From: a virus
Lineage: Duplodnaviria > Heunggongvirae > Uroviricota > Caudoviricetes
DNA: 35,879 nucleotides
Virus record (IMG/VR): IMGVR_UViG_2548877009_000012
Direction: 5' to 3' (one strand)
Part shown: piece by piece, positions 27,001-30,000 of the stretch
Layout: every line of letters begins with the position of its first letter
How positions within the stretch are numbered: the first letter of the stretch is position 1
Made by a program: the position numbers

Positions 27001-30000
27001 ACAAACTCATAATGCTGGCGAAGATCCTCTGTGTAATCGTCGGCATTTCATTTTCACTAATGCTGGTTGCTCTTTTTCTTTCCATGGGCTGGATGATGTT
27101 ATCTTCGTCGGGGCTGCTGGGGTGAGCATAAACCGAATGCTTTCCGCGTTTACCGTTATTCTGCTGGTGGTCTGTGGTGCGCTTAGTCTGGGGCTGAATC
27201 ATTACCGCGATAACGCCATCATCTACAAAGCGCAGCGCGATAAAAAAGCCAGAGAGCTGGAGCAGGCAAACGCAACCATTACTGATATGCAGGTGCGCCA
27301 GCGCGATGTTGCTGCGCTCGATGCAAAATACTCGAGGGAATTAGCCGATGCGAGAGCTGAAAATGAAACTCTGCGTGCTGATGTTGCCGCTGGTCGTAAG
27401 CGCCTGCGGATCAACGCCACCTGCTCCGGTACCGTGCGTGAAGCCACCGGCACCTCCGGCGTGGGCAATGATGCCGCCGTCGAACTCTCTCCGGTTGCTG
27501 GACGAAACGTTCTCGGTATCAGAGACGGAATCATCAGCGACCAGGCTGCATTGAGAATGCTTCAGGAATATATCCGCACTCAGTGTATTAACTAGTATTT
27601 TTGTTATCCGGAGAATGCATGAAGAAATTACTGGTAACCGTAAAGCCTTTTCAGGGAACAATTCCGTTCCGTATTTTGCAGCGTGGTCGTGTTCTTGTTG
27701 AAGGTTCGTTCAGTGGTAAATGTACGCAATTACACTCCCGGACCTTTCAGGTGAATGCCACGAATGAAGAGCTAACCGTTGAGTGTACGATGAATGCCGC
27801 TAAATGCCGTATGGTATCGGCTGCATTACAGCCAGTGTGTTGAGCGACCTTATTATCCATGCGCGGTATTGTCGCCGTATTCCCGTATTAACAGAGACCG
27901 CAGCCCGACAGGGAGACTCCTCTGCGCGAGTGTGCGGGGATAATCAAAAACGATACACACCGGGGTTTACCGCGTTAACGGAGCGCGGCGTTGTCCCCTC
28001 ATAGTCGCCTGTCCTGTGCGATGGTGGAAGAAACCTGACGATGTGTTACCTCACAAGACCTGTTATGTCATGTGTCTGATTTGTGATTTAAGTCGGATAA
28101 TTGTCGTTGCCATTAAGCAGAGGATTGATGACCGACAGGGTGGCATTGTTAGAATAAGACTTATTCTTATCTGTGCCGGGAATGAAAATGAAAAGAAATC
28201 TTCCGTTAATTATTTTGTTGTCTTCTCTGGTTATGGGCTGTACGCAACATAAAACAGATATGCCCCGACAGTTGGTTAAGGCATTACCACAATATCCGGC
28301 CTATGCAGCGGCAAATTATATAAAGGGACGGGTTGATGTGAAGTTTGATATTGGTGCTGATGGTACTGTCACCCGAATTGAGTTTATCCGTTCAGAGCCA
28401 CACCATCTGTTTGATGAGCAGGTTGTAAAGGCGATGGCAAAATGGCGATTTGAGAAGGACAGGCCGCGTAAAGGCGTGAAGAAAACGTTTATCTTTAGTC
28501 CTTCTGCACCCTGATTATTTCATCAGAAATTAATTATCACTCTGTTGTTATTCTGTACATCCCGGCTGGGTAAGTCTTGTTCCGCCGGGTATGAAGATGA
28601 AATATTGTTGGAGGACAGTGGGTACCTGCTCCTGTAACCGAACGTTCATTTCTCGTTATTTGTCATGCTGGCCGGGCGCAGGTGCGTTGCATCTGTTGCC
28701 AGCCTTCTCCTGCAGGCTTCAATAACCCACGCTGAAAAGTTACCGGACCCTTTATGCTCAAGGGCGATGTTGATCTGTTCAATCATGTGATTGGGGAAAC
28801 GGATATTGCGGGTTGTGGTTCTGCGGGTCCGGTTTTTCGATGACATATTTATTTCCTTTACTGATTGCCATATGACGGGGATTTTACATGGCTGAGCTTC
28901 GTACACTCCAGAGCAGAATCAAAACACTGAATACCCGACGGGTGAATATTCTGAAGGGTGAACAGCGTCGTGTCAGTGGCAGTGCACGTGTTTCCCTCAA
29001 GCGTCATATCTGGCTCAGGGATGCCGGGCAGTGCTGTCTCTGTGGTCGTGTGGTTGACCTCTGTGACAGTGAACTCGATCACCGAATTGCACTTCAGTTC
29101 GGTGGTGGTAATGAGGAGACGAATCTCTGGACGCTCTGTACCGAATGCCATCGACAAAAGTCTGCTCGTGAAGCGGCGGGTGGTATGCCGGACCCGACGC
29201 TGCCGGAGGTGTCCGGAGGTAGTGGCAGAGCGGACGACATCATCGGACTGTAACCCGACCGGGGGGGGTATCATTCGGCGTAAAAAACGATCGCTCCGGA
29301 CACCGCGCCCCCTCTCACGCAGAGAAAAAATTCCCGTTTCAGGGCAGTTAACATGTTAACTGGCTGTCCGGGCATTTTTGCGGTTTTTATCTTTATTATT
29401 CAGTTTGTTGCGTGGAAAAAATGTTAACAGGCTTTTTCAGCAAATGTTAACCAGGCAGCAGTTAACATTTGCGGCATGAGACGCCGGGAAAAATGGCTGA
29501 ACCATACCCGGCTGAGTGCGTTCTGGACCCGGGAGGAGGCTGTGCTGACAACGCAAAAACGAAAATTTGCGCTGGCGCTCATGTCCGGGAAAAACAAAAC
29601 AGCGTCAGCCATTGCCGCCGGTTATTCGGCGAAGACAGCCAGGGTTAAAGGCTCGCAGCTGGCAAAAGATCCGGAGGTGCTTGCGTTTATAGCCCGTAAA
29701 CAGTGCGAGACGGTGGAGGTGAATGAGGTTCCTGTTTACCGGCAGAAAAAATCAGAGCAGGAGGATAAACCCCGTCGCCGTGAGGCGGCTGCAATACCAC
29801 AGCCGGACGAAACAAATCCGGAGATGCCACCGCCCGTGGTGATATCTCCTGGTATTGAGTATATGGAGGACGGTCTTCCCGATCCGGTGAAAGCGATGGG
29901 GCGTCTTCTGGTGGAGAACATTAATACCGACCCCAGGCTGGCGCTGGATGCGGCTTATAAGCTGGCGCAGTTCACGCACCACAAAAAAGGGGATGCCGGT

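Follow-up and report, generated by a model that had tools for sequence, protein, structure and literature searches.

What does a phage-encoded lipoprotein that carries TonB's C-terminal domain do in its host? The question is raised by a 108-codon ORF in a 35,879-nucleotide stretch of Caudoviricetes DNA (IMG/VR record IMGVR_UViG_2548877009_000012; the whole stretch is called the window below). The start codon at 28188 is the conserved one; a possible in-frame start, the ATG at 28182, reads ATA in some relatives and is missing in phage 21, and a stop codon upstream bounds the ORF. The product is named 'TonB family protein' in RefSeq, and an old EDL933 annotation reads 'Partial tonB-like membrane protein encoded within prophage CP-933N', so detection of the gene is not new. 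Full-text searches of the literature turned up no work on the function of this gene or on that of the TolA-like lipoprotein described below. Coordinates of the gene, its parts and its surroundings are collected in Table 1.

Table 1. The TonB_C lipoprotein gene, its cassette and other features of the window (positions counted from the first nucleotide of the window).
Feature	Position	Strand	Remarks
Lipoprotein precursor CDS with TonB C-terminal domain	28188..28514	+	ATG start, 108 aa, TGA stop
Predicted lipoprotein signal peptide (aa 1–17) and lipidated Cys18	28188..28241	+	PROSITE-type pattern match
Tether of ~15 residues (aa 19–33), predicted disordered	28242..28286	+	pLDDT < 50 for aa 19–31
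TonB_C domain (aa 34–105)	28287..28502	+	Pfam, phmmer, AF2, Foldseek, residue mapping
Moron cassette, 600 bp	28036..28635	+	phage vB_EcoS-569R3 lacks it and has the flanks joined
Rz i-spanin (PF03245)	27122..27595	+	profile match
Rz1 o-spanin lipoprotein (PF06085, E = 7e-21)	27348..27554		embedded in Rz
YlcI/YnfO (DUF3950) gene	28646..28846	-	directly 3′ of the cassette
HNH endonuclease	28888..29253	+	followed by terminase small subunit, then large subunit (30102..31763)
Candidate extended -10 promoter element TGtTAGAAT	28147..28155	+	33 nt 5′ of ATG; consensus match, prediction only
Weak Fur-box-like palindrome, 13/19	28153..28171	.	overlaps candidate -10/+1; deleted in phage 21
GC-rich hairpin at the cassette 3′ end	28561..28590	.	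no U-tract
stx1 Fur box (19893..19911, 16/19), stx1A (20021..20968) and stx1B (20978..21247)	19893..21247	+	

Lipoprotein signal and TonB C-terminal domain

A lipoprotein signal with the lipobox LVMGC had been claimed in the first-pass annotation, and this reading held when the ORF was compared with the pattern {DERK}(6)-[LIVMFWSTAG](2)-[LIVMFYSTAGCQ]-[AGS]-C: the N-terminal sequence MKRNLPLIILLSSLVMGC satisfies the PROSITE PS51257-type lipobox rule, with L-V-M-G-C ending at Cys18. Residues +2 to +4 after Cys18 are TQH and the Asp retention signal is absent. Since the Lol-avoidance signal, Asp at +2, is replaced by Thr, sorting of the lipoprotein to the outer membrane is predicted. The +2 residue is Ser or Ala in relatives, and a lipobox followed by a non-Asp +2 residue is kept in clades A and B of the gene (LAVGC followed by S in clade B) and in distant small relatives.

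The TonB C-terminal-like domain that had been proposed for the mature part was confirmed by profile search, both models exceeding their curated cutoffs (Pfam TonB_C PF03544, 56.1 bits, cutoff 24.6, E = 5e-15; TIGR01352, 56.5 bits, cutoff 27.1). When PDB sequences were searched with phmmer, aa 26–104 aligned to the E. coli TonB chains 1u07, 2gsk_B and 2grx_C without gaps (E ~1e-16), and identity to E. coli TonB 153–235, again in a gapless alignment, was 37% (31/83). The AF2 model has pLDDT values of 82–93 across aa 41–100 and consists of helix 36–42, strands 47–55 and 61–70, helix 76–84 and strand 94–103, the last being the equivalent of TonB β3, the strand that pairs with the Ton box. The best Foldseek matches of the model were 1u07, 2grx_C and 2gsk_B (probability 1.0, TM 0.74–0.80 by target length), while a BFVD fold search for further viral proteins gave no match at E ≤ 0.001.

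The seven C-terminal residues that matter for TonB function (Y163, F180, G186, F202, W213, Y215 and F230; PMC3005593) were mapped onto the phage protein with an offset of +127. Six are identical (Y36 = Y163, F53 = F180, G59 = G186, F75 = F202, W86 = W213 and F103 = F230) and the seventh is a conservative change (F88 = Y215); the YP motif of TonB is also kept. The position of TonB R166, which contacts FhuA E56, is occupied by Tyr and that of Q160 by Leu or Tyr (L33 of the tether aligns to it), so the specificity of the phage lipoprotein may differ from that of TonB. Q160L is a classical suppressor of TonB-box mutations (PMC11658791).

The N-terminal transmembrane helix, the Pro-rich linker and the ExbD-binding region of TonB are missing from the phage lipoprotein. 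In TonB, coupling to ExbB/ExbD is through an N-terminal transmembrane helix with the SHLS motif (PMC12905483); here the N-terminus is an 18-residue lipoprotein signal that contains no His, and Cys18 is separated from the domain by only ~15 residues instead of a long proline-rich linker. Full-length TonB equivalogs (NCBIfam PRK10819) scored 50–73 bits against cutoffs of 265–448, with matches restricted to profile positions ~152–240, the C-terminal domain only. By these scores, and by the absence of the ExbB/ExbD-coupling helix and of the linker, the protein falls outside the functional TonB energy transducers.

Position, selection and distribution of the gene

The cassette is inserted after the shared junction GTGCGATGGTGGAAGAAACC and lies between a complete Rz/Rz1 spanin pair and the ynfO, HNH and terminase genes. 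Its GC content is 42.7%, versus 51–54% in the flanks. As a discrete insertion that is missing from a collinear relative and deviates in base composition, the TonB_C gene is a phage moron. The candidate extended -10 element falls within a block conserved with phage 21 (TGtCAGAAT), does not vary in 68 IMG/VR copies, in which the '-35' is variable, and is kept between clades despite saturation of synonymous sites. No intrinsic terminator was found after the gene, the hairpin at the cassette 3′ end having no U-tract and a z of -1.9. The gene is on the late-transcript strand and for that reason may be mainly a late gene.

These surroundings also bear on a distinctly unlikely alternative, in which the protein is an envelope or virulence lipoprotein that tethers the outer membrane to peptidoglycan or alters the surface, as Bor/Iss does in serum survival, or else a late modulator of lysis, with no competition for TonB boxes. 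The gene adjoins bor/iss in phage 21 and in the UTI89 prophage, it follows directly after the lysis cassette on the late-transcript strand, its PHROG family (1267) is labelled 'Rz-like spanin', and small chromosomal homologues occur outside phages. However, Rz and Rz1 are both present (PF03245 and PF06085), which rules out the spanin label; the TonB_C gene lies 590 bp downstream of this complete pair, in a cassette of its own, and its product is a folded TonB_C domain rather than a short proline-rich o-spanin. The expert annotation of phage 21 likewise lists i-spanin and o-spanin apart from a 'TonB C-terminal domain protein', and a purely structural role would leave the kept TonB recognition residues unexplained.

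Compared with the phage 21 copy, dN/dS is 0.12 and pS is 0.65, with synonymous sites saturated. All readable IMG/VR copies (68/68) are intact at 108 aa, a length that is constant in clades A and B. The low dN/dS and the intact copies show that the gene is not a chance ORF, and it is under purifying selection. The same data were set against the reading of the gene as a decaying fragment of a captured tonB with no present function, which the words 'Partial tonB-like' in the old annotation would suit, as would several clade-B database entries that are frameshifted at the C-terminus with loss of β3. Against this stand the dN/dS value, the intact copies, the acquisition of a lipoprotein signal that is kept across clades and genera, and the presence, among 5426 complete E. 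coli genomes, of clade A in 415 and of clade B in 1225. Selection and conservation have thus already largely refuted the decaying-fragment reading, and its probability is very slight. If clades A and B rarely overlap, up to ~30% of complete E. coli genomes carry the gene.

The locus search for relatives was based on an 8-sequence alignment. Shiga-toxin producers are among the carriers, as are uropathogens such as UTI89, and the slot after the lysis genes, near bor/iss, is occupied by the TonB_C gene in three phage lineages. The carrier phages (Stx1a-type, phage 21 and a Klebsiella phage) differ in their tail and host-range modules.

The first-pass annotation had also placed stx1 on the same prophage, correctly, since stx1A and stx1B are both within the window, and the best Fur-box match of the whole window lies just upstream of them. 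Its further proposal, that Fur-regulated stx1 and the TonB_C gene share a link to iron, was not borne out as a rule: the TonB_C gene is present in only 4 of ~47 Stx1a-converting phage records, stx1 is present in only 1 of the 23 viral contigs with enough upstream DNA, and the commoner clade B resides in the stx-negative phage 21 and a UPEC prophage. The palindrome near the candidate promoter reaches a score that is also attained by 16 positions in the window. With co-carriage rare, and a 13/19 palindrome that phage 21 has lost, the tie to stx1 and Fur is judged incidental.

A putative motor-less decoy of TonB

This anatomy is read most economically as competition with host TonB, because β3 and six of seven recognition residues are kept, the parts that couple to ExbB/ExbD are missing, and the predicted tether would hold the domain near the transporters. 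TonB and TolA capture their partners by parallel β-augmentation on their own C-terminal β-strand (PMC12905483). We propose, at a probability of roughly 0.45, that the phage protein serves as a TonB decoy without a motor, tethered to the outer membrane and vying for TonB boxes, and that its host gains tolerance of TonB-dependent phages and bacteriocins but pays in siderophore uptake. The gene would act as a lysogenic-conversion moron, expressed in lysogens from its own promoter. Its product, probably located in the outer membrane, would present a free-standing TonB C-terminal domain on a flexible tether of ~15 residues beside the periplasmic face of TonB-dependent transporters, where the edge β-strand and the recognition residues could capture the TonB box by β-strand augmentation. 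Because the transmembrane helix, the proline-rich spacer and the ExbD-binding region are absent, such a protein would be able to bind and unable to pull, and would thus behave as a competitive, dominant-negative decoy. It would fill the TonB boxes of transporters, and possibly those of imported colicins; irreversible adsorption of T1/φ80-type phages and uptake of group B colicins and microcins would be expected to fall, and less siderophore and B12 would be taken up. Phage 21 and the UTI89 prophage also carry sitABCD, whose product imports Fe/Mn without TonB and could make up for the iron cost there.

The decoy reading is weakened by the changes at the Q160 and R166 positions, by the place of the gene on the late-transcript strand, by a promoter that is a consensus match with no terminator found after the gene, by the lack of a matching PADLOC model, by the several clade-B database entries that have lost β3, and by non-phage relatives. 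Raoultella ornithinolytica, R. planticola and Erwinia sp. have small chromosomal lipoproteins (P0035, P0037, P0039 and others) that likewise combine, in 107–133 aa, a lipobox, a non-Asp +2 residue and TonB_C. Their whole-length identity to the phage protein is 40–49%, against 37% for TonB itself. Unlike the phage gene, they adjoin lacIZY or ara genes and have no recognisable prophage context, and an inhibitor of the cell's own TonB is harder to rationalise in the Raoultella and Erwinia relatives (44–49% identity).

A narrower action is conceivable, in which the TonB_C fold docks periplasmically onto one transporter and locks it in a non-receptor conformation, as a receptor-specific blocker of the Cor/Llp kind that inhibits TonB in no general way. 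Cor and Llp are small phage outer-membrane lipoproteins that act on FhuA (PMC11436027; bioRxiv 10.64898/2026.03.26.714494). The phage protein is itself small and predicted to be an outer-membrane lipoprotein, the substitutions at the Q160- and R166-aligned positions could narrow its specificity, and a narrow block would spare iron uptake. Nevertheless this is unlikely: six of the seven general TonB recognition residues are kept, the carriers, with their differing tail and host-range modules, have no obvious common receptor, and the PHROG scan, which gave phrog_1267, 34172, 812, 29243 and 5155 only, showed no similarity to the Cor/Llp families. Nor did any PADLOC defence-system model match the TonB_C lipoprotein; membership in Cor/Llp or in a known defence system was ruled out on these two scans. 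No cor was found among the annotated genes of JLK-2012 (14–57 kb) or of the phage 21 tail-fibre region.

The target could also be the bacteriocin itself. As a periplasmic trap for group B colicins (B, D, Ia and M), the protein would bind their N-terminal TonB boxes at the inner face of the outer membrane and stall translocation, with transporters little affected. Colicin M has a TonB box of its own, for which contact with TonB is required, and mutants of the TonB box are taken up again when TonB carries Q160L (PMC11658791); Leu also stands at this very position in the phage protein, and a parallel lipoprotein with the TolA C-terminal domain would be the counterpart for the group A colicins, whose route is through TolA. 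The same sequence data fit the decoy hypothesis, however, and because the TonB boxes of transporters and colicins are similar, selective binding of the latter is not predicted. A dedicated colicin trap is accordingly given low odds and considered very unlikely.

If the decoy reading is true, E. coli would respond differently, through a very common prophage gene, to phages that depend on TonB, group B colicins and microcins, and siderophore-antibiotic conjugates, with bearing on host range in phage therapy, bacteriocin competition in the gut and iron physiology in infection. There would also be a precedent from nature for blocking the contact between TonB and the TonB box, an antibiotic concept under pursuit (PMC9841981).

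Comparison with known systems

A second lipoprotein, built on a TolA C-terminal domain (PF06519, E = 6e-23; lipobox LTTGC followed by T), occurs in sister prophages; it is named 'cell envelope integrity protein TolA' in RefSeq, is 142 aa long and is found, for example, in FORC_041 and phage mEp460_ev081. It is present in 6 of the 23 contigs that carry the clade-A TonB_C gene. The two proteins are alike in joining a lipobox to the partner-binding C-terminal domain of an energy transducer without its anchor or linker, and differ in domain family and in location, the TolA_C gene lying in the post-Q slot, where the window has stx1; the window contains no TolA_C lipoprotein gene. This parallel build suggests a strategy shared with the TonB_C lipoprotein. 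A bolder proposal, to which we give tentative credence with the odds against it, is that the two are paired, convergent morons of temperate coliphages, a widespread form of lysogenic conversion and superinfection exclusion in which outer-membrane-tethered, motor-less TonB_C and TolA_C decoys would shut both Ton and Tol import of phages and bacteriocins, the iron cost being paid in phage 21 and the UTI89 icd prophage by sitABCD and an extra porin. No earlier description of such a Ton and Tol decoy mechanism was found.

Cor (φ80, N15) and Llp (T5) are, as is predicted of the TonB_C protein, small phage lipoproteins of the outer membrane; they act on the TonB-dependent transporter FhuA from the periplasmic side. 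They have no detectable sequence kinship with it and target one receptor, whereas the TonB_C fold predicts recognition of the TonB box that all TonB-dependent transporters share. The Bor/Iss moron of lambdoid phages occupies the same slot between the lysis genes and cos/terminase and is a conversion gene for a small outer-membrane lipoprotein, as is predicted of the TonB_C gene, but its sequence is unrelated, bor is on the opposite strand and the product is annotated as a complement-resistance factor.

The C-terminal domain of E. coli TonB (~153–235; 1U07, 2GSK chain B with BtuB and 2GRX chain C with FhuA) has the α-β-β-α-β fold in common with the phage protein, which stops where TonB residue 235 would align, in the Pro-rich tail SPSAP, and is encoded in a phage cassette. 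The functional precedent for the decoy model is a set of engineered TonB fragments placed in the periplasm (Howard, Herrmann, Stratilo and Braun 2001, J Bacteriol 183:5885), which, according to PMC9841981, inhibited iron import through TonB-dependent transporters. These too are an anchor-free C-terminal part of TonB in the periplasm; they were soluble, overexpressed laboratory constructs, whereas the phage protein is natural and its lipid anchoring in the outer membrane is a prediction.

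Cassette and genomic setting

The window spans the left-hand part of an Stx1a prophage. The TonB_C lipoprotein gene lies 3′ of the lysis cassette, on the strand of the late transcript, and is followed by ynfO/DUF3950 on the minus strand, an HNH endonuclease gene and the terminase genes. A 74-aa ORF directly after Rz, conserved and hypothetical in relatives, parts the spanin genes from the cassette and had no Pfam match. Compared with phage vB_EcoS-569R3, in which the flanks are contiguous, the window carries an exact 600-bp insertion with a GC content of 42.7% (51–54% in the flanks); judged by its sequence, this cassette is a classical moron. 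The junction sequence before the insertion, GTGCGATGGTGGAAGAAACC, is also found in phage 21 and an Stx2a phage. What comes after the shared junction differs between phages: it may be the TonB_C cassette, a different AT-rich insert of 250 bp, or nothing at all. The site resembles a hot spot for the recombination or insertion of morons. The junction GTGCGATGGTGGAAGAAAC(C), at 28017-28035 in the window, was also present in the loci L010 (~3338-3374) and L003 and in vB_EcoS-569R3 (L002).

Coordinates of features in the window and in related prophages
Feature	Location	Strand	Remarks
Fur-box match	19893-19911		upstream of stx1A/stx1B
stx1A	20021-20968		
stx1B	20978-21247		
Rz	27122-27595		PF03245
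Rz1	27348-27554		PF06085
74-aa ORF	27619-27843	+	
Moron cassette	28036-28635		
Candidate extended -10	28147-28155		TGtTAGAAT, predicted; 33 nt upstream of ATG
Fur-box-like palindrome	28153-28171		AATAAGACTTATTCTTATC; overlaps -10/+1 of candidate promoter
TonB_C lipoprotein CDS	28188-28514	+	ATG to TGA, 108 aa
Antisense sigma-70-like match	28315-28342	-	TTCACA-16-TATAAT, 11/12
TolA_C lipoprotein	L001 10106-10534 (FORC_041 prophage)		142 aa; lipobox LTTGC/T; mature part PF06519, E=6e-23
sitABCD/porin entries	L094 8468-11001 (OL657228.1 21967-24502); L096 3248-6697, L095 16354-17436 (UTI89)		phage 21; UTI89

The lipoprotein and its relatives

The ORF, lipoprotein signal and TonB C-terminal domain described in the first-pass annotation were all confirmed. 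The N terminus, MKRNLPLIILLSSLVMGC, conforms to the PROSITE-type lipoprotein rule, with Cys18 next, followed by T-Q-H (a residue other than Asp at +2). In profile searches, which that annotation had proposed as a check, the protein scored above the cutoffs of Pfam PF03544 (E=5e-15; 56.1 bits, gathering cutoff 24.6) and TIGR01352 (56.5 bits, cutoff 27.1). Using phmmer against PDB sequences, aa 26-104 were aligned without gaps to E. coli TonB chains (E ~1e-16), including 2gsk_B (BtuB complex) and 2grx_C (FhuA complex). An AF2 model (pLDDT 82-93 at aa 41-100, <50 at aa 19-31) contained a helix (36-42), two strands (47-55 and 61-70), a second helix (76-84) and a strand (94-103), and its best Foldseek matches were 1u07, 2grx_C and 2gsk_B (probability 1.0, TM 0.74-0.80, normalised to target length). 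A further match (E=6.5e-16) was to phrog_34172, a phage protein family of unknown function, towards the C-terminal end of its 251 positions (163-242); this suggests that some phages encode near-full-length TonB-like proteins.

The domain identification is by itself ordinary: existing names are 'TonB family protein' (RefSeq), 'TonB C-terminal domain protein' (phage 21 record) and 'Partial tonB-like membrane protein encoded within prophage CP-933N' (EDL933). What is new is the known domain in a natural, phage-borne, motor-less architecture with a predicted lipid anchor. A full-text literature search found no functional work on the gene or on the TolA-like lipoprotein of related prophages, and the TonB_C lipoprotein is not covered by any PADLOC model.

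Two clades were distinguished, both with a lipobox. Of 5426 complete E. coli genomes, 415 carried clade A, the window's type (LVMGC/T), in every case on the chromosome; it was also present in Stx1a phages, JLK-2012 and Lys8385Vzw. Clade B, the phage 21 type (LAVGC/S; ~71% identical to clade A), was present in 1225 of the 5426, among them UTI89, and in the classical lambdoid phage 21, PhiR47_2, ev017 and Perceval; a Klebsiella phage holds a 40%-identical copy. Three phage lineages share the slot, on the late strand between the lysis genes and terminase or cos. Every one of the 68 readable clade-A copies in IMG/VR encodes an intact 108-aa protein, variation being confined to four positions, and dN/dS against the phage 21 copy was 0.12. 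That the gene is a dead remnant is extremely improbable, being at odds with these selection and conservation data. Many database entries for clade B (P0012, P0013, P0015, P0018, P0019, P0021, P0024 and P0030) carry frameshifts near residues 66-95 with loss of the β3 strand; P0012 alone represents 130 member sequences, and phage 21 has no long homopolymer at the site. Faulty assembly may be the cause, or the alleles may truly be inactivated.

The gene adjoins bor/iss in phage 21 and UTI89. This neighbourhood and the 'Rz-like spanin' label of PHROG 1267 would suit an envelope, virulence or lysis-accessory lipoprotein, an unlikely reading given that the TonB recognition residues are kept and that the spanin pair is complete, since Rz1 is embedded in Rz.

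An exhaustive HMMER search returned 4933 TonB_C relatives. Among the best were about a dozen small lipoproteins (107-133 aa) of the same architecture, with a non-Asp residue at +2 and 40-49% identity over the full length. Because these are closer to the phage protein than TonB is, sequence similarity places the phage gene among small TonB_C lipoproteins that form a wider and still uncharacterised family; a recent origin by truncation of E. coli tonB is improbable. In species-representative genomes, such lipoproteins occurred in Raoultella and Erwinia beside lacIZY or ara genes, in settings that are not prophage-like. A DUF1440/YagU-type membrane protein gene adjoins the chromosomal copy in Raoultella ornithinolytica, and in Klebsiella phage ST13-OXA48phi12.4 a DUF1440 gene is located ~3 kb away from that for the TonB_C protein (loci L004 8738-9301 and L011 277-903); this proximity may be coincidence.

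Predicted function, expression and co-carried genes

We put at roughly 45% the probability that the lipoprotein acts as a TonB decoy, tethered to the outer membrane and lacking a motor. The competition with TonB proposed in the first-pass annotation is a reasonable idea. Held by a flexible tether of ~15 residues, the domain would sit at the periplasmic side of TonB-dependent transporters. As the binding strand and recognition residues are kept and energising is impossible, any TonB box that it bound would be engaged unproductively, in competition with host TonB. The functional precedent comes from the laboratory, where a periplasmic TonB domain made without an anchor inhibited transport via FecA and FhuA (Howard et al., 2001, as summarised in PMC9841981). 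Carrier cells are predicted to tolerate TonB-dependent phages, T1 and φ80 among them, as well as group B colicins and microcins, and to show a drop in siderophore and B12 uptake. This mechanism is specific and cheap to test, and the gene is carried by a large fraction of E. coli genomes. A sub-case of the decoy model, not separable from it by sequence data, is a trap for the TonB boxes of incoming colicins, which we regard as very unlikely. A receptor-specific blocker resembling Cor/Llp, with which the protein has the small outer-membrane lipoprotein logic in common, is unlikely: a PHROG scan showed no sequence relationship of the protein to the Cor/Llp families, and the tail modules of the carrier phages are unrelated. 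The main weaknesses of the decoy model are the changes at positions aligned to TonB Q160 and R166, the chromosomal homologues, where self-inhibition is harder to explain, and uncertain expression timing.

The candidate extended -10, a predicted promoter element, lies within one of the few upstream blocks kept in phage 21 (there TGtCAGAAT); the coding regions of clade A and phage 21 are saturated at synonymous sites (pS=0.65). The element was invariant in 68 IMG/VR copies, with a variable nominal -35. No canonical terminator was found 3′ of the gene. Within the coding region, the strong antisense sigma-70-like match keeps its -10 in phage 21 as TGaTATAAT, overlapping the conserved codons AANYIKG; coding constraint alone may account for this.

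An iron link through Fur-regulated stx1 had also been suggested. Both stx1 genes are indeed in the same prophage, with the window's best Fur-box match (16/19) just upstream, but the connection does not hold in general: the gene was present in only 4 of ~47 Stx1a-converting phage records, and clade B is carried by stx-negative phages. The Fur-box-like palindrome upstream of the gene scored 13/19 against the consensus, equalled by 16 positions in the window; it is invariant in most clade-A copies and lost by a 13-nt deletion in phage 21. Among 23 IMG/VR contigs reaching 8.5 kb or farther upstream from clade A, only one has stx1AB upstream, six have a TolA_C lipoprotein gene, three have tciA and 13 have none of these.

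The E. coli FORC_041 prophage is 98.3% identical to the window over 24018-35879 (99.6% over 27001-29400), and its TolA_C lipoprotein gene, absent from the window, occupies the slot of stx1AB. The product is built like the TonB_C lipoprotein from the other envelope energy transducer, a parallel that lends weight to the predicted decoy mechanism. Copies at least 95% identical occurred in 108 of 5426 complete E. coli genomes and relatives of ~82% identity in 772 more (895 of the 5426 with relatives overall); phage mEp460_ev081 also has one. Besides clade B, sitABCD is found in phage 21 and in the icd prophage of UTI89, and UTI89 has an extra ompC porin gene. SitABCD is an Fe/Mn ABC importer independent of TonB-gated outer-membrane transport, and we hypothesise that it and the extra ompC could make up for what blocking TonB costs in iron. 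Both co-occurrences fit the decoy idea, and linkage within related prophages may account for them.

Comparison with TonB

E. coli TonB 153-235 is 37% identical to the phage protein (offset +127). Seven functionally important residues of the TonB C terminus, Y163, F180, G186, F202, W213, Y215 and F230 (PMC3005593), correspond to Y36, F53, G59, F75, W86, F88 and F103, six identical and one conservative. Their retention is informative because these residues are well conserved in enterics and otherwise mostly poorly conserved across TonBs (PMC3005593). The residue aligned with Q160 is L33; in TonB itself, Q160L is the classical change that suppresses mutations in the TonB boxes of FhuA and colicin M (PMC11658791). 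Tyr stands in place of R166. Parallel β-augmentation onto the C-terminal β-strand is the way in which TonB and TolA capture their partners (PMC12905483), and this strand is also present in the phage protein. None of the parts required for force transduction is there: the transmembrane helix, SHLS motif and Pro-rich spacer of TonB are all absent, the stretch from the lipobox Cys to the domain is only ~15 residues long, and full-length TonB equivalog models matched in their C-terminal part only (50-73 bits, cutoffs 265-448). The phage protein thus belongs to the TonB_C domain family, but with the motor parts missing and the equivalog scores below cutoff it is not a TonB.
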